Assembly: GCA_027315135.1 (NCBI GenBank)
Contig: DAHUYR010000021.1
Coordinates: 1-55,750 of the forward strand
Direction: 5' to 3'
Source: Candidatus Micrarchaeota archaeon
GTDB taxonomy: Archaea; Micrarchaeota; Micrarchaeia; Micrarchaeales; CABMGC01
Length of the DNA stretch: 55,750 nt
Of the stretch, positions 4,092-54,990 are shown in pieces. The notes under the pieces are model-generated. The model worked only from the letters and a program-made list of their open reading frames with translations. It searched no databases and was not told the DNA's origin. Position 1 is the first letter of the stretch; each line of letters opens with the position of its first letter. The position numbers and the translations under genes are program-made.

Positions 4092-4645
4092 AAATAGACC
4101 CGTATAAAGCCATCGCTGTGCTTTGAATAAAATTCTGTAAGTTTATGTATAACTCAAGGTTTTTATATCTTTACTAAAGCAAGCCATCTCTTACTATGCT
4201 ATGTCTTGCTTGCTATTCTCGCACATAATTATATGTTATGAAGAATCTCAGAAGCAAGCGCTGTCTAACTTTCAAATCAAGAAGCCAATTGAAATCCTTA
4301 AATAATTCAAATGTACAACTTTAGATTATTGGCCTCTCTGTTCCGATTTTAGGATGAGAAATAACTTACTTTCTGAAAATCCTTCAGTTATACTATATGC
4401 TTCTTAGTTCATATACTTTTCGGCAAATCTTTAAAAGGCGGCATCTGCATATTGGCATTTACAAGGCATGTACTGCAAGGAACTACTTCTTCCTGTCCTT
4501 CCCTTGCAGATCCTTGAATACGGCTGTGCCAAGTGTCACACCACCCAGAACAGCCCCGGAAGCGATATACACTATCTTTTCTTCAAAACTGACCCATGCA
4601 TGCCGAACATCATATTGCCTATTCCTGTACTACATATGAATACGT

Positions 4646-7116: not shown

Positions 7117-8070
7117 TCAATCCCTCAAAATGCCCTTGAAAAGTTTTAATGTGATACTAGGGTCTGTAGAATAATGAAACTCATGGCCTATTGAAGGCAG
7201 TTGCTTCAAGCCTTCTAGCTTGCTTTGTAACATATCATCTCTTTCTTTATCTGTGAATACCTGCATGAACCAATCTCTGTGCAGCGGTTTGAAAGAATTC
7301 TGCAAAATTCCTGCAATTTCATATCTCTCTTCCAAGTTAAAAACCGGATGCACTACTATGCTTATCTTGTTAGACATATCTCTGACCGAAAGATAAGCTG
7401 ACATCTCCACATATCTGTCAATATCTAGTTTTAGACCTACATATCTTCCTGCGTTTTTCCTTATCTGCGCAAGAGTGCTTATGGAATAGCTCCTGCCATT
7501 CTCTATCATGCTTCTGTCCTCAGATATTAACTGTATCGGCATCTTTGCATTTATCAGTTGCAACAACAAGGTTGTTTTGCCCTTCCCCGAATCGCCATTA
7601 ACCAGTATGCCTTCAGAACCATGGTTTATTGTTATTGCATGAATTACCGGTCTCGTAGTGGCAAGCTGTATTAATTCCAAAACCCCAACAGTGAAAATCC
7701 GGTAATCCACATCCATGAGAAGCTTGACATCTAAAATTTCATCTTTCCTATCTACTAAGATGTATCCATCACGCTTTGGCACATAGTACACTACCTTATC
7801 CTTGCCAATTTGCTTTACCTCCCAATCTACTGGTTTATCTATACCTCTATACTCAGTTTTAGATGCTGAAGTAAACGCGCCCCTGCCAATACTACTTTCT
7901 TTAGAAACAATACCTATGTTTATCTTGGCAGGCAAATCAAATAACCTTCCAGATCTTCTGTCCATAGCTTGCAAGAAGCTGTCAATTCTTTCATGCAATT
8001 CATTACTTCCTCCATAATGGGTAATTGTTGCCTCGCCAATTTTGGAAGTGATACTGGTGCTTTTAAACAT
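7117..8070 (-). CDS. HPr-kinase-related P-loop protein (HprK C-terminal-domain-like), N-terminal domain unknown
   Basis: HGSEGILVNGDSGKGKTTLLLQLINAKMPIQLISEDRS parallels the HprK/HprK-related kinase signature (G-x-L-x-x-G-x-S-G-x-GKS/T ... acidic pair). It abuts the upstream gene with no gap. Confidence 0.5.
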   Translation of the reverse strand: MFKSTSITSKIGEATITHYGGSNELHERIDSFLQAMDRRSGRLFDLPAKINIGIVSKESSIGRGAFTSASKTEYRGIDKPVDWEVKQIGKDKVVYYVPKRDGYILVDRKDEILDVKLLMDVDYRIFTVGVLELIQLATTRPVIHAITINHGSEGILVNGDSGKGKTTLLLQLINAKMPIQLISEDRSMIENGRSYSISTLAQIRKNAGRYVGLKLDIDRYVEMSAYLSVRDMSNKISIVVHPVFNLEERYEIAGILQNSFKPLHRDWFMQVFTDKERDDMLQSKLEGLKQLPSIGHEFHYSTDPSITLKLFKGILRD

Positions 8071-10257: not shown

Positions 10258-13200
10258 TCAGCATGAAGAGATTATGTTTATAGTTTGAGAGTATGTTCCA
10301 GGAGCTTCGCCTGCTGGGATTCCTATTCCAAAATAAATATCTTTACTGTTCGATGCGCCTAAAGTAACTTCGGTATCGTATTCTGTAGATGTTAATGCAT
10401 TCGCAGTAATATATGGTACGTTTATGGACCATGACCAAACCGTATTTGTGACTCCGAAAGTATTTGTTCCAAATGCCCACGAATTTCCGCTTAGGAGCAC
10501 ATTTGAAGGAGTATTTCCAGTATTTGTTATGAGTATTGCATTTTGTGTTGCAATAACGTTTCCAGGATTTATAAGCCCAAAGTTTATTACAGAGTTACTT
10601 GTTGTAAAAGAACAGGTATTAGAACCAGACACTATTGTAAGTGTTCCGGATTTTATTGAATTTGTTGTTTCTGGGCTGTACGCTGAGTCTGTTACTATTA
10701 CATTTGTTTGCACAGTATTACCCAAATCAGCACTTGGTATTGTCCATGCAAAGCTGTTTGAGGTTCCCGATATTCCTGTAAAGAGCATGTTTGCCACTAG
10801 GTTTCCTGTTACTGTGTTTACTATTAGGTAGTTGGCAGTGTATGTAGGCGTTCCTCCTGTCCATGAAGCTGTAAAGGTTATTGTGTTGCCTGATCCAAGA
10901 CTGGCCGGCAATACTGGAGATGAGATTAGGATTGGAACTGACAAAGCCGGATTTACCGTTACTTCACTGTTTATTGAATTTGTAGTTTGGACATTAGTTT
11001 GGACAATTCCTAAGTAGTAAGTAGAGCATAGTTTAGTTAGAGGATTAATAAGAGTGCATTCTAATACGTATGCATATGAACCATCAGGGGAGATTCCAAC
11101 GTATTGAGGGTCTTTAACTGCCGAGGAAGAATAAGCCTGAGTTATGGTATTAGTCGCTGTATCAATTACATCTATTAGATATGTATTAGAAGATACTGAT
11201 GTTACGTAGGCATAGGTTCCTGAAGGAGCTATGCTCACGCCTGTTGGGTCAAAAGAAACTGTCGTTATTGAACCTGTTACTGCATTTGTGGCTGTATTGA
11301 TTATTGCTACATTAAAATTACCATTATTTGATGCATATGCAAAGGTGCCGGAAGGGGAGAATGATACTGAAGTTGGACTACTGAAGCCGCTGGATATTGA
11401 AGCTGTCACTGAGTTGGTTGCTGTGTCGATAATAGATACGGTGCCGCTATTGTAATTTGCCACGTATGCATATGAGCCGTCAGGGGAGAATGCGACACTG
11501 TATGGAAGATTCAAACCTGTAGTTATTGCTCCAGTTACTGCATTTGTAGCAGTATTTATTATTACTATATTTGTCGGAGCACCTGTGTTAACTACATATG
11601 CATATGTGCCTGAAGGAGCTATACTGACTCCCTCTGGGCTGTTAAAGCCCGCAGTTATTGCGCCTGTTACTGCATTGGTTGCTGTGTTGAGTATTACTAC
11701 ATTGTTGCCAAGAGGATCTGTTACATATGCAAAGGTGCCTGAAGGGGAGAAGGCTAATTGCCGAACATCTTCTGTATCGGACAATGTAGAACCTATGGAA
11801 GGCGAATATATGTTGTTCTCAGTTACAAATATGCAGTAATACGTGTTTGAGGCTGGGCTTACAGAAGAAAATGTTGCAGAAGTTGATGACAGTCCGATTT
11901 CCTGTTCAACTAAAGTGGACTGCTGGTTGCAGGTTGAGGTTGATGAAGAATATAAAGATGCTCCATATGTTGAGGTTCCTCCTAACCATGTGCTGCTGAA
12001 AGTTACAGACTGACCTGAATCTATTGCTGGGTCGGAAGGGCTGATTGTTGGAGTGGTTAAGCCCTGACTTATTCCGAACGTAGATGAATAAATCGAATTG
12101 AATGTTGTTGGGCTTGAATCAGTCACTATCACATTAAACTGTTCAGGCGAATTTGCCACGTCTGCGCTAGTTGTTGTATACGTGAAAGTATTGCTGGTTG
12201 CCGATACTCCTGTAAACAGCATATTTGCCGTTACTGCATCGGTTATGCTGTTTGATACTATCCAATTATAGGTATACGGACCTGTCCCTGTACTTACGGT
12301 AGCAGTACATGAGACTGATTGGCCTGATTGCATAACAGTTGTAGATGGGCAGGTTGATAAGCTTACAGAAGGTATGGGAGGAAGAACGAGTATTGGAGGA
12401 CTTGTGCCATAATTAAACACATATATTTGACCATTCCCTCCATTTCCTCCCACTCCTGCAGAGCCGCTACTACCGCCTGTACCGCCTGAAACAGTTATTC
12501 CTGATGTAGACGGAGCAGTACCTACTCCATTATATGCAAGAAGTACAAATCCACCGCCTGCTCCTCCACCACCTGATGACGAATGCTTTCCACCGCCTCT
12601 TCCACCTGAACCACCGGCAGTACCTGCCGTAGCTCCACCTGTTCCTCCTGTTGTTGCTGCAGTAGCGGTAGTGCCAGCGCCACCACTACCTAAAGCCTGT
12701 ATGGTTCCTGTAGTGATTGAATTAGCCTGTATATATATGCCGTACGCCCCGTCTCCTCCAAGATCTCCTGAACCATCACCACCGCCTCCTCCACCTGCAC
12801 CTGAATCATAGTTTACAAATGGCCCGCCGTACCATGTTTGGATTAGTGAACCTGTAATAGAAGGTAATGTTGGAGTAGAACCTGGAGAACCTGGGACACC
12901 GCCTCCTCCACCTCCTCCACCTCCGCCTCCTGAGCCTGCGTAAGAACTTGTATAGGAACCTCCAGCTCCTCCACTACCTGCTCCTCCATTCGGGCTATGT
13001 CCGGTAGATATTACGCCATTGTTTATAACACTATTACTGCAGAGTATGTCATATCCATCTGTAGTTAGCGTTATCCCTGAGTTAATAGTAAGTGAACCGC
13101 AAACAAGGTCGCTTCCCAGAATAGTACTACTAGATATGACAAGGTTTGTATTTGCAGTTGTGTAGTATACTGTAGGATCGACAGCTGAATAGTTACTGTT

Positions 13201-14082
13201 CCCTTTTGTCTCAAATACTATCTCACTTGATTCGGTGCTTGGTATATTTGAAAAAGATACCAATTTGTTTATTGAAATAGCAGATATGTTTCCACCATCC
13301 TTCAATACACCTCCTACATAAATTTTGTACGAATAGTTAATCCCTGTATTACCGGATATTGAACTTGAAAGGCTAGCGTTAAGATTATAGCTATTAGTAA
13401 GATATACTGCTGATCCAAAGGTTTTATACGGGCTGACAAGCACGTTTTCAACAGGCTCTGACGAATTGATTATAACTCTGCCTAATTTAACCTCAAGATT
13501 CGGAACTGCTTTTGTGATGGAGATATTATATAAGCGAAGTATGCTTCCATTCTGTATATATATTGCATAATGGCTGGACGTACCTGCACCGACATCTCTG
13601 CCTTTATTAGATAGATATCCGTAAGGTATTGTTAGGTTGTAGTCCTCAATCATTACGTTTTGCGCTGCAGGTGCAATACTGCATTTTGAAGAGTTGATTA
13701 GATTCTGAAGCTGCGGCGTGCTTATTGGAACAGTTGAGTTAAGTTCAGAATATAAGTTTCCCGAAAAATTGTTTTCAATATAAACCATGTTATTTTTATA
13801 GTATCTCGATATAGTTTCGTTTAATCCGTAACATAATCCGGATGTTTGGGTAAGTGCTGTCCCATTCGTCAGATTTGTTGCAACTGTGGAGTTAGGTGCT
13901 GAGTTAGTTGAATTTCTGACAGTAATGGTTGAATTATAAGACTGATTTAAGAGTGTATTCGAGGAGCTATTAACAGATGCATATGTATTGTTTGTATAAT
14001 AAGCGTATACAATGAATCCTGGTAGGATAACTATAAGTAAAGATAATATAGCATACTTGAACAGGTTTTTCATTTTATGCAT
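10258..14082 (-). CDS. Giant secreted multidomain surface protein: N-terminal sequon-rich domain, Gly-rich segment, Ig/PKD-like modules, YVTN-type beta-propeller, C-terminal domain shared with ORF 8835..9332
   Basis: It has an N-terminal signal/anchor. The Gly-rich block includes 11 consecutive Gly. Two homologous modules share ANMLFTG(V/I)S..SN.F...SAD..N...NVIVTDS. Six repeats of the type FSPSGTFAYVTD / IAPSGTYAYVVN / FSPDGSYAYVAN, each followed by I(I/L)(D/N)TATN.VT, are YVTN beta-propeller repeats. Confidence 0.85.
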   Translation of the reverse strand: MHKMKNLFKYAILSLLIVILPGFIVYAYYTNNTYASVNSSSNTLLNQSYNSTITVRNSTNSAPNSTVATNLTNGTALTQTSGLCYGLNETISRYYKNNMVYIENNFSGNLYSELNSTVPISTPQLQNLINSSKCSIAPAAQNVMIEDYNLTIPYGYLSNKGRDVGAGTSSHYAIYIQNGSILRLYNISITKAVPNLEVKLGRVIINSSEPVENVLVSPYKTFGSAVYLTNSYNLNASLSSSISGNTGINYSYKIYVGGVLKDGGNISAISINKLVSFSNIPSTESSEIVFETKGNSNYSAVDPTVYYTTANTNLVISSSTILGSDLVCGSLTINSGITLTTDGYDILCSNSVINNGVISTGHSPNGGAGSGGAGGSYTSSYAGSGGGGGGGGGGGVPGSPGSTPTLPSITGSLIQTWYGGPFVNYDSGAGGGGGGDGSGDLGGDGAYGIYIQANSITTGTIQALGSGGAGTTATAATTGGTGGATAGTAGGSGGRGGGKHSSSGGGGAGGGFVLLAYNGVGTAPSTSGITVSGGTGGSSGSAGVGGNGGNGQIYVFNYGTSPPILVLPPIPSVSLSTCPSTTVMQSGQSVSCTATVSTGTGPYTYNWIVSNSITDAVTANMLFTGVSATSNTFTYTTTSADVANSPEQFNVIVTDSSPTTFNSIYSSTFGISQGLTTPTISPSDPAIDSGQSVTFSSTWLGGTSTYGASLYSSSTSTCNQQSTLVEQEIGLSSTSATFSSVSPASNTYYCIFVTENNIYSPSIGSTLSDTEDVRQLAFSPSGTFAYVTDPLGNNVVILNTATNAVTGAITAGFNSPEGVSIAPSGTYAYVVNTGAPTNIVIINTATNAVTGAITTGLNLPYSVAFSPDGSYAYVANYNSGTVSIIDTATNSVTASISSGFSSPTSVSFSPSGTFAYASNNGNFNVAIINTATNAVTGSITTVSFDPTGVSIAPSGTYAYVTSVSSNTYLIDVIDTATNTITQAYSSSAVKDPQYVGISPDGSYAYVLECTLINPLTKLCSTYYLGIVQTNVQTTNSINSEVTVNPALSVPILISSPVLPASLGSGNTITFTASWTGGTPTYTANYLIVNTVTGNLVANMLFTGISGTSNSFAWTIPSADLGNTVQTNVIVTDSAYSPETTNSIKSGTLTIVSGSNTCSFTTSNSVINFGLINPGNVIATQNAILITNTGNTPSNVLLSGNSWAFGTNTFGVTNTVWSWSINVPYITANALTSTEYDTEVTLGASNSKDIYFGIGIPAGEAPGTYSQTINIISSC
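10268..10323. repeat. Inverted repeat arm 2 (3' end of 1274-aa gene)
   Basis: Reverse complement of 9267..9322 (see that entry). Confidence 0.9.
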
Positions 14083-30434: not shown

Positions 30435-30574
30435 AATCTAATCTAATTTAAGGAATAAAAAGCTTGCCGTATCCTTCGTTGACAATGTAAAATAAGGAAA
30501 GCTCCAAATTCTTACGTGGCTTTTGCGGCAACAAACAGCAATCTAATAAAGCTGTTAACATAAAAGATATATTT

Positions 30575-30590
30575 ATATATTATAATATAT
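30575..30590. promoter_or_regulatory. Perfect 16-nt AT palindrome in the promoter region of the 30624..34791 operon
   Basis: atatattataatatat is its own reverse complement. It lies 34-49 nt upstream of ATG 30624 and could be a TATA box, an operator, or both. Confidence 0.4.
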
Positions 30591-30623
30591 GATATTATAC
30601 TTGAGTAAATAATCGGTGGAAGG

Positions 30624-30896
30624 ATGGAGATAGAGATAGACACTTTGAAACTTCAGAACATGGTTCTCAGGCTGTGCGGTCCAGAAGATGGTGGAGACAT
30701 ACTTGCGTACATCAATACTTCATCAGAAGTGGATCTAAGTGAATTGATCCACAAGTTTATAATCAACGGTGCAGACAGACGGACATTGCTCTCGGAATTA
30801 AGGAGGTTCAGGATAAATGATGCGGACATCGCGGATGCGTTCTCTGAAGCCATAAACAAAATCGCCAGTCGGGCTATACATGGAGAAACTGAATAA
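30624..30896 (+). CDS. Small soluble helical protein, first gene of the ATPase operon
   Basis: 90-aa ORF with GGTGGAAGG upstream. Its 3' end overlaps the next ORF by 17 nt. Confidence 0.6.
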   Translation: MEIEIDTLKLQNMVLRLCGPEDGGDILAYINTSSEVDLSELIHKFIINGADRRTLLSELRRFRINDADIADAFSEAINKIASRAIHGETE

Positions 30897-31545
30897 GTAC
30901 AAAATAAACTATGCTATTGAGGTGAGCGCTAGCGCCAAGAAGAAGCCAAGCCAGCTATACGAGCGCCTTTCAGCAGTAAAGGCTTACAAGGTGACTCGGA
31001 ATGACGACGACCTGACGCTTATTTCTGAAGGGAAAGACAGGCTCTTCAGATGCAATTTAAGCGCAAGCAGCATCTCAATAGAGCTGTTCGCAGAAAAAGC
31101 TGTGGAAAATCCGAAGAAGGAACTTTTGCTAATGCTATTTGAGATATTATCCGGATGCGATTGGCAGTACGGGATAGACCTGACTGACATATATGGCCAT
31201 ATAACAGATTCGTTTGCCAAGAACCAGCTAAACTACTATTCGAATGCAATAAAGGAGATAAATGCAAATGAGTATTCTGACATAGTGCTGGCAAAACGCA
31301 TAATCGGCCTCAAAAGGAAGAACGCTGAGCTTGAAGAAATTGCAGCAAAGCTCCACAATAAACTATCGAGAGTTGCTCCTGATGTGATAATCGGAAGGTT
31401 CAGCCATGGGTCTACCCTGCAGGAAATCATCGAATATACTGGTTTAGACAAACCTGAAGTGGAAGCTGCGCTTAAGGAATTGCCTAATTTAGGCTATAAA
31501 ATAATTGGACACTCCGGCAACAAATTGAATGTGGTTAAGATATGA
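30880..31545 (+). CDS. Operon protein with central coiled coil and C-terminal winged-helix-like segment
   Basis: 221 aa. KRKNAELEEIAAKLHNKL is a coiled segment, followed by STLQEIIEYTGLDKPEVEAALKELPNLGYKI (an HTH-like pattern). Its stop overlaps the next start (ATGA). Confidence 0.65.
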   Translation: MEKLNKYKINYAIEVSASAKKKPSQLYERLSAVKAYKVTRNDDDLTLISEGKDRLFRCNLSASSISIELFAEKAVENPKKELLLMLFEILSGCDWQYGIDLTDIYGHITDSFAKNQLNYYSNAIKEINANEYSDIVLAKRIIGLKRKNAELEEIAAKLHNKLSRVAPDVIIGRFSHGSTLQEIIEYTGLDKPEVEAALKELPNLGYKIIGHSGNKLNVVKI

Positions 31546-32108
31546 ACGGCATTATTGCATACTATATATCTCAGTTCTACCCGTTAATTATCGGCGTCCT
31601 ATTGTTCTTATTATTAAAATCATTAAACCTTCTGAAGCACAAGACAAAGGTTACCTTGGAAAAATCAACAAGCAGCGAAGTTACTATAGACGAATTAAGC
31701 CATATGCTTTCTAATCCTGTATATGACATACGCGACCTGCCTTCCGAAAGCGATAAGCAGCACTCCATTTATCTATGCGCCTACTTCGGGATGAATGTAT
31801 TCGGAAGTTATGTGATCAACTCAGCAGAGCCTAGGAAAGCAGCTTTCGCGAAGCTGATAGCAGACAGGCTGATAATGCAAGGCATCTCCATAAAAGCTTC
31901 CAGGTCAAATCAAGCAGAAAGCGCCTGGGCATGCACTCTCGGTATAATGGACTTAGACCATGCCTCCAATCTAACGGCATTTCCAGAAAGGCTGGAGATA
32001 TTCTCCCCTTCAAAAGAGGCTCTCCTCAATCACCTACTGAAGCCAAATTCATTATCCGGACCACTTCTCGGCCATCTCGTTAGTTACAATCTAGACATGG
32101 TGAAATAA
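31542..32108 (+). CDS. N-terminally TM-anchored operon protein
   Basis: 188 aa with an N-terminal hydrophobic helix IIAYYISQFYPLIIGVLLFLLL followed by a soluble domain. Confidence 0.65.
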   Translation: MNGIIAYYISQFYPLIIGVLLFLLLKSLNLLKHKTKVTLEKSTSSEVTIDELSHMLSNPVYDIRDLPSESDKQHSIYLCAYFGMNVFGSYVINSAEPRKAAFAKLIADRLIMQGISIKASRSNQAESAWACTLGIMDLDHASNLTAFPERLEIFSPSKEALLNHLLKPNSLSGPLLGHLVSYNLDMVK

Positions 32109-32109
32109 G

Positions 32110-32304
32110 ATGAACGGAATTGTGCTCTTGTTCAGGTACGCTGCACAAATCTCAGCAATTGCAGTGTCAGCCATGTCTATGCTGCTAGTGCTTTCAAGCA
32201 ATGCTGGGAGGACGGAACCAGTGCGGAAGCTATTGCTGAAGCAAATTGCAATATTCACCATAATTGCAATATTTTCATTAACTGCATATACGGTGCTCTT
32301 ATGA
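32110..32304 (+). CDS. 64-aa two-helix hairpin membrane protein (VirB2/CedA1-like topology, hypothesis)
   Basis: Hydrophobic helices AAQISAIAVSAMSMLLVLSS and IAIFTIIAIFSLTAYTVLL are joined by the basic loop NAGRTEPVRKLLLKQ. The ORF starts 1 nt after the previous stop. Confidence 0.6.
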   Translation: MNGIVLLFRYAAQISAIAVSAMSMLLVLSSNAGRTEPVRKLLLKQIAIFTIIAIFSLTAYTVLL

Positions 32305-32564
32305 GATATGTTCGTTACAAGCCTGTTATCGGCTACAAAAAGTATGCCGGAGTAATATCAGCATATTTGAATGTCCAAATTGCCATGCTTTCCATATTAA
32401 TGTCAATCGGAATAGGCGAATATGCGATACTGACAATATCTGTCATTGCAATAGTTGTATTTACGCTTGCCAGAAACCGCATCGCTTCGGAAATTAAGCT
32501 CTATCTGGTCCTCCTGCTGCCTAATGCAATCTCTTTAATTGCGATAAATGCGATAATTAGGTGA
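32301..32564 (+). CDS. 87-aa polytopic small membrane protein
   Basis: Three hydrophobic segments (VISAYLNVQIAMLSILMSIGIG; AILTISVIAIVVFTLA; LYLVLLLPNAISLIAINAII). ATGA overlap with the previous ORF. Confidence 0.6.
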   Translation: MRYVRYKPVIGYKKYAGVISAYLNVQIAMLSILMSIGIGEYAILTISVIAIVVFTLARNRIASEIKLYLVLLLPNAISLIAINAIIR

Positions 32565-32568
32565 ATGC

Positions 32569-34791
32569 ATGTCAGCACTACGCTCTATCGTAATCAATGC
32601 AGTGCCTTCAGACCTGAACCCGACGCTGCTTGTTGACTCTTTCTTAAACTCAAAGTTCGTGTTAATACACGATAATGCCACAGGTTCAACGCATCTGGTA
32701 ACGGATTCAGATGCAATACCGAGGTCATTGAGTAATTTTGGCATAGCTACCTCAGAAGAAAGTATTGGCTGGGCAGACGGCACTGTAAAACAGTTCAAGG
32801 TATTAACAGTTTATTTATTTGAGGATAACACGCGCTATTACGCAAAAGAAAATCACGCATACGAGAGTAAACTTGCAGACATGTATACGATCCTGAAAGG
32901 CACAGATGCAAGGATTATAATGGCATTCTCCCCGTCAGACATGGCGCATGCAACCGCAATCAAAAAAGCGATAGAGCAGGACATCAGCGACATGGATGTA
33001 AGAGTAACGAAAAATCCAGGCCTGCGGTTGGAAAACAAGAATTACTCAGTACAAGCAGATATTTACCACGATTCGGATAAAAAGAGAATGCTCATGTCTG
33101 CGCTCAACATGCTCAACGATGTAATAATGAGCAACGGCACATCCTATAAACTCTCCATACTTGTGGAAGCATCACAGGATTCGGAAAGTGCCGAAAGGTA
33201 CCTGAAAAGCAAACTGCTGATACTTAACGAGGAGAAGCTTACTGCAAAAAGCCCATTGGAGCTGTATGCTAACATAGAAAGGATTAACAGCATCCCCTTT
33301 TCCCTGGAAAGATGCAGCAAATTGATGTTCTTCTCAGACAAGATACGGAAGCTCCCTGCAATAAAGACTACATTCATTGCTTCAAACACTGGAATAATCG
33401 TGGGTAGTTATGTGCACAAGGGGATAAAAACAACAGATGAAAACCTGTGCATAACAAAAGAGTCCCTTAACCTCGGGGCTATAGTGTCAGGCCTTCCAGG
33501 ATCCGGGAAGACCATATCTGCAAAGAACATACTGGGGCAGATTGCTAAGGAAAAAGGGGCGATGATGGTTATAATATCTCCAAATGATGAATGGAACAAT
33601 TTTGGGCGTTCTAATGGCTTGGAGATAATAAAGATATGCGATTCCCAGAAGCCAATTAACTTTTTCAAATGCGACGACCTGATAAACCCTGAGAAGTTCT
33701 ATGAGGATCTGAGCATGCTCATAGCGTCTGCATCGAACGCTGGTCCGTACAGGAACTCGATAGAGAAGGTGCTGCTTTCTGCGTTCAACAAATCCTACAA
33801 GGAGGGCAGGGACCCTGATCCAAATGCTGTGTATTCAAATATAGAATTAGCCATAATAGAGCAGCACGCAACTGTGACAAACACTTCCATCAAGTACACG
33901 AAACACGGAGAGAACATAAAGGCAGCATTGCAAAATTTAAGACTTATTATATCAAGACCTGAGTTCGCATATAATAACGGGATAAACTTCAGATCCATAA
34001 TTGAGAGAGGCGCAGTATTCGACCTTTCAAACGCCAGCAATAATATGAAACCGTTCTTCTATGCGCTCATACTGAACCAGGTCTATGGCTTTGCAGAATC
34101 TTTTGACATATATGGGGACAACGAACTGCGCATGCTCATATGCATGGAAGAGGCACAGGTGGTATTTAGCAATGACGCCGATTCCGCAGCAAACCATGAT
34201 CTTGAGAACAGGGTGCAGAATTTCAGGAAGAAAGGAATAGGACTGTTCCTGATAACTCACAATGCTACTGACATAAGCCCGAGAATACGCAGGCTGCTGC
34301 AGTTCAAGATGTATTTCAGGCAGAGTGCAGATGTCGCAAAATATGCTGCCAACGATCTGGTATTCAACGAAGAGGAGGAGAGCGAGATAGTGAAGAAAAT
34401 GAAGGTGCTGGGACAGAGGACCTGTGCAGTGAGTTACATGCGCGTGGACGGAAGCCGAAAGCTCCCTGAAACCTCAGTATTCGTCGAGGTTCCGGAAACG
34501 ATTGAGGATCAGACTTACAAAAAAGAGGAGCATGCAGAAAAGAATCCAAAGCTTTTAGACACATTATTCATATTAAAAAGCAGGGAAGGTTCAGGAATAA
34601 CTGGTGCAAGGACTCAGCTGCTATACTTAGGCGAGAGGATAGCAGAATGCATCTCAGACAGCGAGGGAAGAGTGAAGTTTGCAGGCATGTTGCTTAATAA
34701 AAAATATGAATTAGTCATGCTTGGAGAAAAGAAAAAGGATTCGAAAAGGTTCCAAGTCTACGGCGGCAGGCCTGAAGAGCTGCTTGCCTGA
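32569..34791 (+). CDS. FtsK-HerA superfamily ATPase (HerA/DUF87/VirB4-class) with ~300-aa N-terminal domain and C-terminal beta-rich extension
   Basis: Walker A AIVSGLPGSGKTISAKN, Walker B RMLICMEEAQVVF (EEAH-like), then FRKKGIGLFLITHNATDISPRIRRLLQFKMYFRQ. That matches the HerA/VirB4 layout GRK.G......Q.p..i......n.......R. Confidence 0.75.
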   Translation: MSALRSIVINAVPSDLNPTLLVDSFLNSKFVLIHDNATGSTHLVTDSDAIPRSLSNFGIATSEESIGWADGTVKQFKVLTVYLFEDNTRYYAKENHAYESKLADMYTILKGTDARIIMAFSPSDMAHATAIKKAIEQDISDMDVRVTKNPGLRLENKNYSVQADIYHDSDKKRMLMSALNMLNDVIMSNGTSYKLSILVEASQDSESAERYLKSKLLILNEEKLTAKSPLELYANIERINSIPFSLERCSKLMFFSDKIRKLPAIKTTFIASNTGIIVGSYVHKGIKTTDENLCITKESLNLGAIVSGLPGSGKTISAKNILGQIAKEKGAMMVIISPNDEWNNFGRSNGLEIIKICDSQKPINFFKCDDLINPEKFYEDLSMLIASASNAGPYRNSIEKVLLSAFNKSYKEGRDPDPNAVYSNIELAIIEQHATVTNTSIKYTKHGENIKAALQNLRLIISRPEFAYNNGINFRSIIERGAVFDLSNASNNMKPFFYALILNQVYGFAESFDIYGDNELRMLICMEEAQVVFSNDADSAANHDLENRVQNFRKKGIGLFLITHNATDISPRIRRLLQFKMYFRQSADVAKYAANDLVFNEEEESEIVKKMKVLGQRTCAVSYMRVDGSRKLPETSVFVEVPETIEDQTYKKEEHAEKNPKLLDTLFILKSREGSGITGARTQLLYLGERIAECISDSEGRVKFAGMLLNKKYELVMLGEKKKDSKRFQVYGGRPEELLA

Positions 34792-51861: not shown

Positions 51862-54800
51862 TTATGCTTTGCAGGCAGTTGAGGTCAGCCAAGGGCAATT
51901 GGTGGAGCTGCAGGAGTTGCCGCCAAGATCGCTGTTACCTGAAGGCGAGACTGTCGGGCAGTATATACCATATGTGGTGCCGCTCACGCTGCTGCCTGCC
52001 AATGAGGAAGAGGTTGCGCCGAAGTTTATTCCTGTGGTGGAGTTGCTTATCTTGACGCTTGATATCGTGTCTCCTGCTGACTTGTTCAGAATAATGGCAG
52101 TATCAGTCGCATTAAATATATTGACATCTTTTATAACAGAGCTTCCCGCCCCATTGAGGACTATTCCATTCACCGAGTTTGCAATGGTTGTATTCAGGAC
52201 ATTTGTGTATGTGCCTGAAGATACAATTGCCTGTGTGAAGTTCTTAAGGAAGCAGTTCTCTATCTCTATTCTGCTTGTGTTGTAGATATTCGCAAATATC
52301 CCTCCATTCTCTGCATATATGGTGTGGCCCTCGCAGTTTATGTAAGAGCCGTCAGTAAGTGTTGTCTTGTTGCTGTTGTAAACGCTGAAGCATGTCGTCC
52401 CGTAAGTGTAAAGCATATCATGCGCTATACTATATCCATTGACTGTGTTTATGGCTGTGCAGGAAGGCCTCAGCGCGCTTGCAGGAAGCTCCACAAGCCA
52501 TACGCATCCTGTCTTCGTGAGTCCATGATTCACTCCGTTCAATTCCGCATATATTCCTGAGGATGCCGGGTTGCATGCATAATCATTCGCGTTTGAATTG
52601 GCTGTGTTGTTTGCAACAAGATTATCATTCGAGCTGTCGAACACGAATCCAATGTTCTTATTGTTTGATGCGGTGTTGTTTACGAATACGTTGCGCGTGG
52701 AATTGCCGTATAGATAGAATCCGGTAGCGTTGCTCAGAAGGCTGAATGCAAGATTATTCACCACTGAGGACTGCTTCAGCCTGTATGCCTGCAGGCCGTA
52801 AACCGAATAATTATACGCCTTAACATTCTCAAACACTGAGAGTGATATGTTGTAAAGATTCACAGCAGTGCTTGCATGCAGAAACTCAGAATTGTCCAGC
52901 GTAATCCTCGATGAGTTGTATGCCGAGAATCCATACGGGAAGTTCTCAACATTGCAATTGGCAAGGGTTATATTGGAAACAGAGCTTGCATAAAATGCGC
53001 TTGATGCGCGTGAAGATCCATCATAATTGAGCAGGTGGTTATTGCAGTTTAGATTTATGTTGCTCGCCGCAAACTTAATGCATGTGCCAGTCGGTATGAG
53101 ATTAGTGTTGAGCGAATAATTACCTGCAACGCTAAGAGTCGTGCAGCTGTTGATCGGATAAGCAGCAATTGGCGGAAGAACTCTTGTTGTGCACAGGCCT
53201 GTTGCCCAGTTGCAATCAGACGATCCGCAGGAGACATCCGAAGCGATGAAGCCGCTGCTGTTGTATGAGTTCGAGCTGCAATAAAGGTCAACTTTGTTCC
53301 TCAGGATAGTTCCGTTATGAAGCACGCCTGTTGTGCTTCCATTAGTTGCTAGGCCGTATGTATTGTTGCCGGCATCTATTCTGTTGATAGTGGCAGAGCT
53401 GTTGCCAAGGTATGCTCCATATATGTTGTTGGAATAGTGCGAATCAGTTATGTTGACAAAAGAATCGTTGCTAAGATAAATTCCATAGGTGCCTTTCGAA
53501 TAGCTTACATTGCTGAACTTCAGCTCTGCGCTTCCGTTGAAGTAATTTCCATAAGTGTCATTAGCAAAATTGCAGTTTTCTAAGCTGAAGTTGAATATTT
53601 TGTTGCCGTAGATTCCATAATATGCGTTTATTATGCTCTTCCCGTTGCAGTTAAGTCTGACATTTTGGGAGAGTACTGTGATGCAGGCAGCCTTGTTCCT
53701 TGAAACATTTACATAATATGCAAGGTTGAGGTTTGACTCAAGCTCATACGTTCCTGGGGCGTTCAGAGCTCCGCATGTTGACACCTGGCTGCTTAGATTA
53801 TATGCAGCTGGGGAGAAATCATAATTTGACTTTGTGCATGTGGCAAAGTTACACTGTCTGTTGGAATTGCATCTGGAATTCGAATATGCTCCCGAAGAGC
53901 TGAATGCAGTAATGCCTGCCCCGCAATAGAGATCTACCTGGTTACCCAAGAAGGTATCTCCATAGAACAATGTATTAGAAGAGTATGTGGCAGTGCCATA
54001 ATATACATTGAACTCTATTATGCTATTGGTTATTGAAGTACCGTTGCTTCCTGTTCCTATAAGTATGGCTCCGACAGGATTGGAAGTCCCGTATACTATG
54101 TCATTTGATACTGCCGTGTACGGGCTATTCGATATAGATATGTCGGACATTGTGGAATTTCCAACAGACGAGTTCCTTATTGCAACCTGCGAAGAATTCT
54201 CAAAATATATTCCATATGAGAACCTTGTTACATTGAAACCCTGTATGGAGACGTTTGACGCATTCTCTACTAATATCCCGTAAGTATACGGTGGAGCATC
54301 TATGAATGGGCCGTTACCTGAGAGTTGCACCTTGCTTCCGGTAAGCCTGACATTGTTGCTCTTTATGACTATGCAAGCTCCGCTCGATATATGCGTAAAT
54401 ATGCCTGACTGCACAGTGTAACTTCCAGGAGTGCTTATTACACCGCATGAACTGAGCTGGTAATTCTGCTTAATTGTAGTTGTATAAGTGGTTGTACTAT
54501 GATTCCCACTATTATTGAACAGGAAGAATGCAGCTGCTACAATGGCTATGGCTATAATTGCTGCAATAACAATCCTCATGTTTGCAGCCTTCTGTGCTCC
54601 TCTTTCTCCAAGACCTATTGCATTTGTGTAAGCATTCTCAGCAGATTCCGATACGGCTTCCCCTATGGTCGGTTTAATAATATTAGATTCATCAGGAGAG
54701 GGTGTCTCTTCAATAACGTTATCCTGTGAGGCCTCAGCTTCAGGCTCCTGTTCCTGTTCACCAGAAGGCTGTGCGCTTCCGGCTCCCTGCCCTGCAGGAC

Positions 54801-54990
54801 TAGGACTTTGTGCTGTCCCGGTACCATTCTGTGAAGATCCCTGATCTGCCTGCCCTTTATTCTGTGATGTACTCTGCCCAGTATTCTGCGATGTATTCTG
54901 TCCAGTACTCTGCCCTGTACTCGGTGGAGTATTCTGTTGAGGAGTTGAATCGCTTGAATCATCATAGCTGATAGTGTCTTCGTCAACCAT
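51862..54990 (-). CDS. Type-II-anchored surface protein: disordered Q/S/T/G/N-rich N-terminal tail, one TM, about four right-handed parallel beta-helix (PbH1/NosD-like) modules
   Basis: The N-terminus is low complexity (GQSTGQNTSQNTGQSTSQNKGQ...EQEQEPEAEA). The TM is RIVIAAIIAIAIVAAAFFLF. Repeated N-x-(S/T)-rich ~22-aa beta-helix turns follow. Modules open with C..(I/L)...G.Y and close with Cys-rich motifs. Confidence 0.8.
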   Translation of the reverse strand: MVDEDTISYDDSSDSTPQQNTPPSTGQSTGQNTSQNTGQSTSQNKGQADQGSSQNGTGTAQSPSPAGQGAGSAQPSGEQEQEPEAEASQDNVIEETPSPDESNIIKPTIGEAVSESAENAYTNAIGLGERGAQKAANMRIVIAAIIAIAIVAAAFFLFNNSGNHSTTTYTTTIKQNYQLSSCGVISTPGSYTVQSGIFTHISSGACIVIKSNNVRLTGSKVQLSGNGPFIDAPPYTYGILVENASNVSIQGFNVTRFSYGIYFENSSQVAIRNSSVGNSTMSDISISNSPYTAVSNDIVYGTSNPVGAILIGTGSNGTSITNSIIEFNVYYGTATYSSNTLFYGDTFLGNQVDLYCGAGITAFSSSGAYSNSRCNSNRQCNFATCTKSNYDFSPAAYNLSSQVSTCGALNAPGTYELESNLNLAYYVNVSRNKAACITVLSQNVRLNCNGKSIINAYYGIYGNKIFNFSLENCNFANDTYGNYFNGSAELKFSNVSYSKGTYGIYLSNDSFVNITDSHYSNNIYGAYLGNSSATINRIDAGNNTYGLATNGSTTGVLHNGTILRNKVDLYCSSNSYNSSGFIASDVSCGSSDCNWATGLCTTRVLPPIAAYPINSCTTLSVAGNYSLNTNLIPTGTCIKFAASNINLNCNNHLLNYDGSSRASSAFYASSVSNITLANCNVENFPYGFSAYNSSRITLDNSEFLHASTAVNLYNISLSVFENVKAYNYSVYGLQAYRLKQSSVVNNLAFSLLSNATGFYLYGNSTRNVFVNNTASNNKNIGFVFDSSNDNLVANNTANSNANDYACNPASSGIYAELNGVNHGLTKTGCVWLVELPASALRPSCTAINTVNGYSIAHDMLYTYGTTCFSVYNSNKTTLTDGSYINCEGHTIYAENGGIFANIYNTSRIEIENCFLKNFTQAIVSSGTYTNVLNTTIANSVNGIVLNGAGSSVIKDVNIFNATDTAIILNKSAGDTISSVKISNSTTGINFGATSSSLAGSSVSGTTYGIYCPTVSPSGNSDLGGNSCSSTNCPWLTSTACKA

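Follow-up and report, generated by a model that had tools for sequence, protein, structure and literature searches.

A split nine-gene cluster of Micrarchaeota with a predicted VirB2-type pilin and two HerA/VirB4-clade ATPases as a candidate Ced/Ted-like transfer machine

Ced of the Sulfolobales and Ted of the Thermoproteales are archaeal derivatives of type IV secretion systems (T4SSs) and are defined by a trio of VirB2-, VirB4- and VirB6-like components (PMC9905601); the components of the two systems show no sequence similarity to each other (PMC9905601). Two HerA-clade ATPases, CedB and CedD, operate in Ced (PMC11868833), and Ted loci hold one VirB4-like and one HerA-like ATPase (PMC9905601). 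The Ced pilins are apparently secreted without processing (Beltran 2023). Among bacteria, the epibiotic lifestyle of the Patescibacteria depends on a T4SS encoded on their chromosome (PMC12102498). Here we analyzed a 55,750-nucleotide (nt) stretch of DNA (hereafter the window; contig DAHUYR010000021.1 of assembly GCA_027315135.1), whose source organism is a Micrarchaeota (DPANN) archaeon, and focused on an operon of six genes at positions 30624 to 34791 of its + strand. This operon is one half, locus B, of a Micrarchaeota-specific nine-gene cluster whose other half lies on a separate locus, and the cluster as a whole is probably a domesticated, T4SS-derived (Ced/Ted-like) transfer machine specific to this phylum.

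The relationship became apparent from distant Micrarchaeota, in which the large ATPase gene that ends the operon, g9, closes a co-directional cluster of nine genes with fixed order and spacing. Using hidden Markov models built for each gene, we searched 90 loci and found the full nine-gene set, with overlapping stops and starts, in ~45 of those with at least 5 kb of upstream sequence; g5 comes after g4 in ~55 loci, and g8 is always immediately upstream of g9 where detected. The cluster encodes a pilin-like protein with a leader and two hydrophobic helices (g1, 120-135 aa), a polytopic membrane protein (g2, 310-350 aa), a bitopic protein with an N-terminal transmembrane (TM) segment and a coiled coil (g3, ~240 aa), an ATPase with DUF87, AAA_10 and TraG P-loop matches (g4, 373-464 aa), a cytoplasmic helix-turn-helix (HTH) protein (g5, ~220 aa), membrane proteins with one (g6, ~200 aa), two (g7, ~61 aa) and about three TM segments (g8, ~90 aa), and a second ATPase (g9, ~740 aa). 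An earlier interpretation of the window, made from its letters alone (the sequence-only reading), had described a unit with a single ATPase; the order in relatives shows instead that the actual unit comprises nine genes and two ATPases.

In the window, the ORF listing exactly reproduced the six + strand open reading frames (ORFs) of 90, 221, 188, 64, 87 and 740 aa that the sequence-only reading had joined into an operon, together with their junctions: going from g4C to g9, successive ORFs overlap by 17 nt, meet in an ATGA, lie 1 nt apart, meet in a second ATGA and lie 4 nt apart. The first ORF, g4C (30624..30896, 90 aa), encodes a stand-alone C-terminal helical domain of the split ATPase gene g4 and is preceded, 4 nt before its ATG, by a Shine-Dalgarno-like GGTGG (30615..30619, + strand; read from the sequence). 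It is followed by g5 (30880..31545, 221 aa), a cytoplasmic protein in which an N-terminal domain of unknown fold precedes a coiled coil and a C-terminal HTH; g6 (31542..32108, 188 aa), a bitopic membrane protein with an N-terminal TM segment at aa ~3-33; g7 (32110..32304, 64 aa), a membrane hairpin whose two helices are joined by a short basic loop; g8 (32301..32564, 87 aa), a membrane protein with ~3 hydrophobic segments that is translationally coupled to g9; and g9 itself (32569..34791, 740 aa), an ATPase of VirB4/HerA fold. A Kyte-Doolittle scan gave one N-terminal TM segment in g6, a hairpin in g7 and ~3 hydrophobic segments in g8, confirming the membrane calls already made for these three proteins, and no TM segment in g4C, g5 or g9; Rfam and tRNA scans gave no structured RNA or tRNA in or beside the operon. 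Gene order, which the sequence-only reading had singled out for comparison with related genomes, is indeed kept in relatives at 60-98% identity. Between the split lineages the synonymous difference (pS) is saturated (0.7-0.8), and the non-synonymous difference (pN) is 0.16-0.22 for g9, the best-conserved gene of locus B (dN/dS ~0.07-0.10), and 0.28-0.52 for g5-g8. Because the order is conserved and pN is well below saturated pS, the six ORFs are not chance ORFs. The proposed operon thus stands as far as its genes are genuine, but its first ORF is a detached domain of g4 and the operon is half of the nine-gene cluster.

The 90-aa ORF corresponds in alignment to the final ~85 residues of g4 (about 288-377 of the full-length protein; E 1e-11), begins at an internal M-E-[IM]-E of full-length g4 and, to judge from this alignment, is the C-terminal domain of the second ATPase and not an independent gene family. 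It matches no Pfam, NCBIfam or PHROG family, and its reading frame is intact in 7 genomes, with pN of 0.22-0.25 versus pS of 0.78-0.81. In the g9 tree, genomes with this short form are monophyletic, with a full-cluster locus (L016) as their sister. We expected that the missing part might persist elsewhere and therefore searched with the g4 of L016, which returned a discrete group of 283-287-aa proteins (g4N) that are 56-64% identical to it, correspond to the N-terminal 72% of g4 only and end in '...INPKTRLLL*'. The contigs that carry them hold g1 (129 aa), g2 (351 aa), g3 (236 aa) and g4N (together locus A) and continue into the Nre/NUDIX/M24 neighbourhood typical of full clusters. Both halves are seen in one metagenome-assembled genome (MAG), DAHXNY01, where contig 2 (L091) carries g1-g2-g3-g4N and contig 1 (L011) carries g4C-g9 between SMC and the geranylgeranyl reductase gene. 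For the lineage of the window, a locus-A contig (L092) comes from assembly ERZ27237200, which also holds L094, a contig with 98.2% identity to the window; L092 resembles the window in GC content (0.431 vs 0.432) and tetranucleotide usage (r 0.957), and the identities of its g4N mirror the g9 tree. All three split lineages keep both halves, and tblastn with distant and close queries did not find locus A in the window. The sequence-only reading was therefore right that the window holds no polytopic protein, but wrong to count this as a feature of the system, since the polytopic g2 and the pilin gene g1 lie in the other half of the split cluster; the apparent six-gene operon without channel and pilin is an artefact of viewing one locus. 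A single ancestral rearrangement would have cut the cluster inside g4, leaving locus A beside Nre and relocating locus B, with its own promoter, between smc and the geranylgeranyl reductase gene. Because both halves are kept under purifying selection, we take g4 to work as a two-piece protein. A conserved motif of g4C, GADRRxxLxxLRxLGIxDxDIADAF, has a weak profile match (E 0.013) to the helix-hairpin-helix repeats of topoisomerase V; none of 26 members matched a helix-hairpin-helix Pfam family, and we keep the reading of g4C as a DNA-binding domain of this type only as a lead.

The conjugation-like signature is carried by g4 and g1. The best NCBIfam match of g4 is CedB (7.8e-22), followed by VirB4_plasma, TraC (1e-18), CedD and CD1110, with VirB4_CagE at 5e-16; the protein exceeds the Pfam cut-offs of AAA_10, DUF87 and P-loop_TraG and matches the TraD and VirD4 models only at E 0.003-0.08. 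The cores of g4 and g9 are paralogous (hhalign probability 97.5%). In the orthologues of g1, a leader peptide precedes a two-helix hairpin with a short basic loop, and in a member-by-member Pfam scan 21 of 30 matched PF04956 TrbC/VirB2 (best 4.2e-6) and 15 of 30 matched PF18895 T4SS_pilin (best 3.3e-7); this locus-A protein, encoded outside the window, is thus predicted to be a VirB2-type pilin. As hydrophobic-hairpin controls we scanned the small window proteins in the same way, and none of 23 orthologues of g7 matched TrbC, T4SS_pilin or VirB3, none of 11 orthologues of g8 matched pilin or VirB3 families, and hhalign gave g7 a probability of 0.6% against the g1 pilin. The suggestion of a conjugation-like apparatus accordingly holds for the wider cluster, in which g1 matches TrbC/VirB2 and g4 matches CedB, TraC and VirB4, whereas the pilin identity that had been proposed for the 64- and 87-aa proteins is not detectable; g7 and g8 are kept as small membrane proteins, with g8 as the candidate for a VirB3-like partner that would bind the N-terminal domain of a VirB4-type ATPase.

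The large ATPase g9 is a member of the HerA/VirB4 clade, an assignment that extends to clade-level membership only. Its Walker A motif GLPGSGKT (aa 308-315; 33490..33513), Walker B motif LICMEEAQ (aa 523-530; 34135..34158) and sensor/arginine-finger block RKKGIGLFLITHNATDISPRIRR (aa 553-575; 34225..34293), all on the + strand, lie where the sequence-only reading had placed the two motifs and the block, and their key residues (G308, P310, G311, G313 and K314; E527 and E528; R553, K554, G556 and H564) are invariant among 35 homologues reaching down to 31% identity; at least 90% of sequences also have R574 and R575, and the block aligns to its equivalent in HerA 8wiv. The protein consists of an N-terminal alpha/beta region (aa 1-~270), a P-loop core (~275-615) with a ~110-aa helical insert between Walker A and Walker B (~375-480), and a C-terminal beta-sandwich (~618-740). 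By sequence it matches DUF87 and, marginally, Pfam HerA_C (22.1 bits, cut-off 22), the NCBIfam models CD1110 VirB4-like (2.9e-6) and CedD (4.1e-5), and the PADLOC HerA and mad8 models over P-loop stretches only (E 1e-5 to 1e-4; PADLOC returned nothing for the other five proteins of the operon), and its best PDB match is the SIR2-associated HerA 8wiv (E 6e-5). By structure, its AlphaFold2 model (predicted local distance difference test, pLDDT, 86.8) finds full-length TrwK/VirB4 of R388 first in the PDB with Foldseek (E 2e-15), then Sulfolobus solfataricus HerA 4d2i (2.7e-14), the VirB4 C-terminal domain 4ag5 (TMt 0.68) and DndH-C. Bacillus jumbo phages supply the best matches in BFVD, VirB4-type 'conjugal transfer' ATPases of 750-913 aa (E 4.6e-24), and A32-type packaging ATPases are far weaker (E 1e-4 to 1e-7). 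An exhaustive profile search recovered only 112 relatives at E <=1e-30 among 1.84 billion representatives, and the nearest outgroup proteins match CedD best, above repair or defence HerA. Collectively, the Pfam, NCBIfam and Foldseek results support the HerA/VirB4 class that had been named for this protein.

Several further observations concern g9 and its relatives. Its C-terminal all-beta domain (34420-34791) resembles CarboxypepD_reg-like and phage tail-fibre or structural beta-sandwiches (BFVD E ~1e-4), an unusual appendage for a VirB4/HerA-type motor. Longer relatives of 815-1052 aa (P0414, P0416, P0418, P0419, P0422, P0426 and P0431) match the first 600-690 profile positions only and seem to constitute a separate subfamily whose C-terminus differs. 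Where g9 has none of g1-g8 upstream (L010, L022, L039, L041, L042, L048, L049, L053, L054, L057, L061, L064, L069, L087 and L088, and also L033, L034 and L046), its direct upstream neighbours encode proteins of three or more unrelated families (223-227 aa; 277 aa; 150-250 aa with a TM segment), and these proteins showed no relation to g3, g5 or g6; reading the upstream protein as a divergent g5 likewise gave no match.

The remaining proteins of the cluster have fewer recognizable relatives. The g2 protein is polytopic (~6 TM segments), its gene adjoins the pilin gene, and its AlphaFold2 model (pLDDT 79.5) contains helices of 50-60 residues; it has no Pfam domain, and a profile search gave no PDB match. 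Neither g3 nor g6 has PDB relatives, g6 also lacks Pfam relatives, and the C-terminal domain of g6 evolves fast (mean column identity of 25% in the family alignment). The absence of PDB matches led us to discard VirB8-like identities for g3 and g6, and a mutual paralogy of the two was discarded at an hhalign probability of 0.2%. In g5, a coiled coil at aa ~120-165 is followed by an HTH at aa ~160-215 (nt 31357-31524), as had been read from the 221-aa protein; its family profile matches the DeoR HTH (E 8.6e-4), MarR and sigma region 4, and weak HTH_IclR and MarR_2 Pfam matches occur in the g5 proteins of the window and of L003. NCBIfam scans of the window g5-g8, of g1, g2, g3, g5 and g6 of L003 and of g2 of L001 returned no Ced match (E up to 0.1-1), and the small proteins had no PHROG matches.

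The surroundings of the operon are those of a core chromosome. The rest of the window encodes SMC, PheRS alpha/beta, GatD/GatE, aIF5B, IleRS, a MiaB-like enzyme, geranylgeranyl reductase (GGR) and RpoK, the GC content does not deviate across the operon region, and three related genomes share two-sided synteny with it (ORF258-ORF346-SMC, the operon, then GGR-RpoK-GT2-CDP-alcohol transferase-IleRS). The downstream side is conserved in L006 and L015, and the 98.2% identical contig has the same gene order as the window. Because this flank synteny is conserved, the operon is a fixed chromosomal feature and not an island, which bears out the chromosomal position between smc and core genes that had been noted in the window. 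Compared with the sister lineage, the flanking housekeeping proteins are 81-92% identical, g9 70-73% and g4C-g8 43-63%, with the small membrane proteins as the fastest-evolving parts of locus B; in locus A (L092 vs L091), g2 (89%) and g1 (83%) are both well above g3 (74%). The homologues of g9 are full-length proteins of ~740 aa found almost only in Micrarchaeota MAGs, g9 is carried by 178 GTDB species genomes, and the matches of g2, g4 and g9 bear only Micrarchaeota-type names.

Locus B also has its own conserved upstream element. A 30-nt TATA/BRE-like block, TTTATATATTATAATATATGATATTATACT (30572..30601, + strand), precedes the first ATG by 22 nt. All seven locus-B copies (window, L011 and L006 lineages) carry it without a single change, even though synonymous sites in neighbouring coding DNA are saturated; the window contains it once (0 expected), and none of the other 87 loci has it. 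From this conservation and position we infer that 30572-30601 acts as a promoter, and we take it to have been gained or retained by locus B after the split. The AT-rich promoter that had been postulated ahead of the operon is thus borne out by a real conserved block. A second invariant intergenic block, ATTTAAGGAATAAAAAGCTTGC (30445-30468), lies directly upstream of the divergent smc start and is kept in all split-clade genomes, even where smc was undetected; it may be an smc promoter or regulatory site. In the L006 lineage (L006 ~4380-4400, L017 ~7880-7900), the first smc codons (reverse complement TTGGCGATCCGGAAT...) and the shared intergenic region remain upstream of the operon, tblastn found no SMC gene there, and IS110 and DDE transposases and a YcaO gene are present instead; smc seems to be disrupted or relocated in this lineage.

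We next compared the cluster with described systems. Like Ced (CedA, CedA1, CedA2, CedB, CedD and CedE; DNA import), it is chromosomal, domesticated and archaeal, combines small two-TM proteins and a polytopic membrane protein with two paralogous HerA-clade ATPases, and is without relaxase or coupling protein (PMC11868833, PMC9905601); the affinities run in parallel, with g4 nearest to CedB and both the direct match and the nearest outgroups of g9 pointing to CedD. It differs from Ced in that the leader of g1 is cleavable, as in TedC and VirB2, that g2 is not detectably related to CedA, that g3 and g5-g8 have no Ced counterparts, that its nine genes form one linked set, in contrast to the unlinked CedD and CedE, that g9 has extra N-terminal, insert and C-terminal beta-sandwich domains, and that the host phylum is DPANN with a symbiotic lifestyle. 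With Ted (TedA, TedB and TedC), it shares a processed VirB2-like pilin gene adjoining a polytopic gene and a VirB4-like ATPase, and the Ted locus often holds a second HerA-like ATPase, like the g4/g9 pair (PMC9905601); however, no sequence similarity to any Ted component is detectable, ParA/VirC1-like and Rad50 neighbours are lacking, and gene order and accessory proteins differ. The conjugative T4SSs (VirB/D4; MPF-FATA; Sulfolobus and Thermococcus plasmids) have in common with it the TrbC/VirB2 signal in g1, the VirB4-like fold of g9 and the AAA_10/TraG P-loop in g4, and the succession g7-g8-g9 (small hairpin, small membrane protein, large ATPase) may resemble virB2-virB3-virB4. Unlike in these systems, no VirD4, relaxase, VirB6, VirB8 or VirB1 homologue is detectable, the cluster lies outside mobile elements, and its second ATPase is HerA/CedB-like rather than VirD4- or VirB11-like. 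The Patescibacteria T4SS is likewise phylum-wide, chromosomal and conjugation-derived, with VirB2-like pilins, in ultrasmall host-dependent cells with reduced genomes (PMC12102498), but it has a genuine MPF-FATA VirB4 and recognizable VirB6-, VirB3- and VirB8-type partners, so that only the ATPase clade and the pilin family are shared. HerA-NurA and the HerA-based defence systems share the HerA-clade P-loop core, yet the micrarchaeal cluster is without a nuclease or effector partner, is rich in membrane proteins and has a pilin; viral A32/FtsK packaging ATPases are ~200-350-aa, single-domain proteins encoded near capsid genes, unlike g9, which has no capsid genes nearby. The system therefore fails orthology-level tests for Ced, Ted and classical T4SSs while sharing their ATPase clade and pilin family. 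In full-text literature searches and a T4SS review of December 2025 (PMC12857230), we found no such system described in Micrarchaeota or other DPANN, in line with the suggestion that the variant is possibly undescribed; the closest published reports concern VirB4/TraG-like domains in giant proteins of nanohaloarchaea (PMC10266531), a speculation on DNA exchange in Mia14 (PMC5498576) and the T4SS of Patescibacteria (PMC12102498).

What the analysis shows is the anatomy of the cluster, its split and conservation, and the classes to which its ATPases and pilin belong; a working model of the mechanism can be drawn from the comparisons. In module A (g1-g4), which would build pilus and channel, g4 with a g2/g3 membrane platform would extract the g1 pilin from the membrane and polymerize a conjugative-type pilus, and g2, with its very long helices, is a candidate channel or stalk. 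Module B, the window operon, would add g9 as a second motor, g6-g8 as the dock that keeps it at the membrane and g5 as a cytoplasmic HTH adaptor or regulator. A g9 hexamer docked on the membrane by g6-g8 and connected to g4 through g4C and g5 would then power macromolecule translocation across a single membrane, between the micrarchaeon and host or conspecific cells; that g4C has stayed with module B suggests it as the contact between both motors. By analogy, the apparatus may serve DNA or protein exchange with a host or partner cell, and DNA would by default be the most likely substrate, given Ced, Ted and the HTH protein.

Several findings weigh against reading the cluster as a T4SS-derived transfer machine. 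Equivalog cut-offs were not reached (44-78 bits versus 700 for g4 with CedB NF041017, 22 versus 600 for g9 with CedD NF053655); the solved-structure relatives of g4 found by sequence begin with HerA (2.9e-21, best 8wiv), with VirB4 at 1.4e-9; and the pilin matches of g1 are individually sub-threshold or modest. The best Foldseek E of g2 is 0.14, with no match to TrwI/VirB6, hhalign gave g1 and g2 a probability of 0.2% and did not find a pilin/polytopic N-terminus relation of the CedA1-CedA type, and g3, g5, g6, g7 and g8 are without T4SS counterparts. Neither the window nor the ~90 loci hold a VirD4-type coupling protein or relaxase, which agrees with the absence of coupling protein, relaxase, NurA and integrase already remarked on for the window; with no nuclease either, only a generic HTH and analogy tie the system to DNA. 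Locus A is linked to the genome of the window through a sister MAG and a same-assembly contig, not a closed genome, and ~18 loci carry g9 without g1-g8 nearby, so that g9 may work without the pilus module. This last point would suit a locus B that is a self-sufficient translocase or assembly motor (for DNA uptake, secretion, envelope biogenesis or cell division) and is linked to g1-g4 by co-regulation, as would the unrelated partners of g9 at those ~18 loci, the rank of g9 as the best-conserved gene of locus B (dN/dS ~0.07-0.10) and the long separation of this locus from g1-g4N, seen in a g9 identity of 62-72% between split lineages and in a conserved promoter of its own. However, g4C, a piece of the module-A ATPase, moved along and stays selected, which argues for a physical link, ~45 loci keep the fixed nine-gene order with overlapping stops and starts, and both halves are retained in all three split lineages; we consider an independent locus B unlikely, though a rival to be taken seriously in view of the ~18 loci.

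It is very unlikely that the cluster is a selfish element rather than a domesticated system, left behind by an integrated conjugative plasmid or provirus, and that the window operon is a decaying fragment of it. The family is carried by 178 species genomes, all from one phylum; at none of the loci examined does the cluster contain or adjoin an integrase, relaxase, replication or capsid gene; the GC of the window is flat; synteny is two-sided in three genomes and downstream in L006 and L015; and purifying selection, with saturated dS, acts on every gene, the 90-aa fragment included. These observations have to be set against the full-cluster flanks, which vary among distant genomes and in several hold toxin-antitoxin, Fic, transposase or restriction-modification genes, the two full copies in one MAG (L031 and L073), and the faster evolution of the cluster relative to its housekeeping flanks (g9 70-73% versus 81-92%). 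A viral source could also be argued from the generic PHROG 'terminase/FtsK-like' families matched by g4 and g9 and from the phage-encoded best BFVD matches of g9, but those BFVD proteins are VirB4-type with A32 packaging ATPases far weaker, and the small proteins match no PHROG; since PHROGs and BFVD gave generic P-loop or VirB4-type matches only, we rejected a viral origin. Still less credence is due to a repair HerA (HerA-NurA-like) or defence HerA (SIR2-HerA- or DUF4297-HerA-like) identity of g9, with or without g4, in which the small ORFs would be unrelated or accessory. Such an identity has on its side the HerA_C and DUF87 matches of g9, its weak PADLOC HerA matches, the SIR2-associated 8wiv as best PDB sequence match of both g9 and g4, and HerA structures just behind VirB4 in Foldseek, and an ATPase grouping with NurA-type or defence HerA was the outcome the sequence-only reading had held to be fatal to its proposal. 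The results point the other way: no NurA, Mre11, Rad50, SIR2, DUF4297 or other nuclease or effector gene is adjacent in the window or at the ~90 loci, the PADLOC matches cover P-loop stretches only (E ~1e-5), five of the nine genes encode membrane proteins and one a TrbC/VirB2-type pilin, and the nearest g9 outgroups match CedD better.

We therefore favour a Ced/Ted-like transfer machine. The more specific proposal, that it is the third independent chromosomal T4SS-derived family of archaea after Ced and Ted and the first in DPANN, conserved throughout Micrarchaeota and made up of a VirB2-type pilin, two HerA/VirB4-clade motors and six orphan proteins, and that it acts as a conduit with Thermoplasmatales hosts for uptake or exchange of DNA or macromolecules from two loci and with a split ATPase gene in the lineage of the window, is tentative, and we rate it a little short of an even chance. 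Pili-like connections between ARMAN and Thermoplasmatales cells have been seen by electron microscopy, alongside extensive host-to-symbiont gene transfer (PMC5498576); no machinery has yet been assigned to either, and the cluster is a concrete candidate that can be tested in existing Micrarchaeota co-cultures. It addresses the question of how DPANN archaea obtain host nucleotides, lipids and genes, would parallel the lifestyle-essential T4SS of Patescibacteria and would extend Ced/Ted beyond hyperthermophilic Thermoproteota. The split g4 and the genomes with a solo g9 are natural experiments on which parts must stay together.

Two observations concern the setting of the cluster in distant relatives. 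MAG MAS3.bin106 (JAJZLJ01) holds two complete nine-gene clusters on different contigs (L031 and L073), which could be paralogous copies or reflect a mixed bin. Beside the cluster or g9 at L001 (10352-10998), L003 (2231-2770 and 10319-11257), L005 (10252-10706) and L010 (3882-7095) lie toxin-antitoxin pairs (RHH/PIN, ParE/MazE, DUF4258/DUF2283), a Fic gene, or a type I restriction-modification system with a transposase, which hints that the cluster is often located in variable genome regions.

Elsewhere in the window, two very large ORFs lie on the - strand. The first (10258-14082, 1274 aa) contains a beta-propeller region with Lactonase, WD40 and cytochrome D1-like matches, and the second (51862-54990, 1042 aa) contains NosD/right-handed beta-helix repeats; both may be surface proteins. 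Such large repeat proteins have often been proposed as host-adhesion factors of DPANN archaea.

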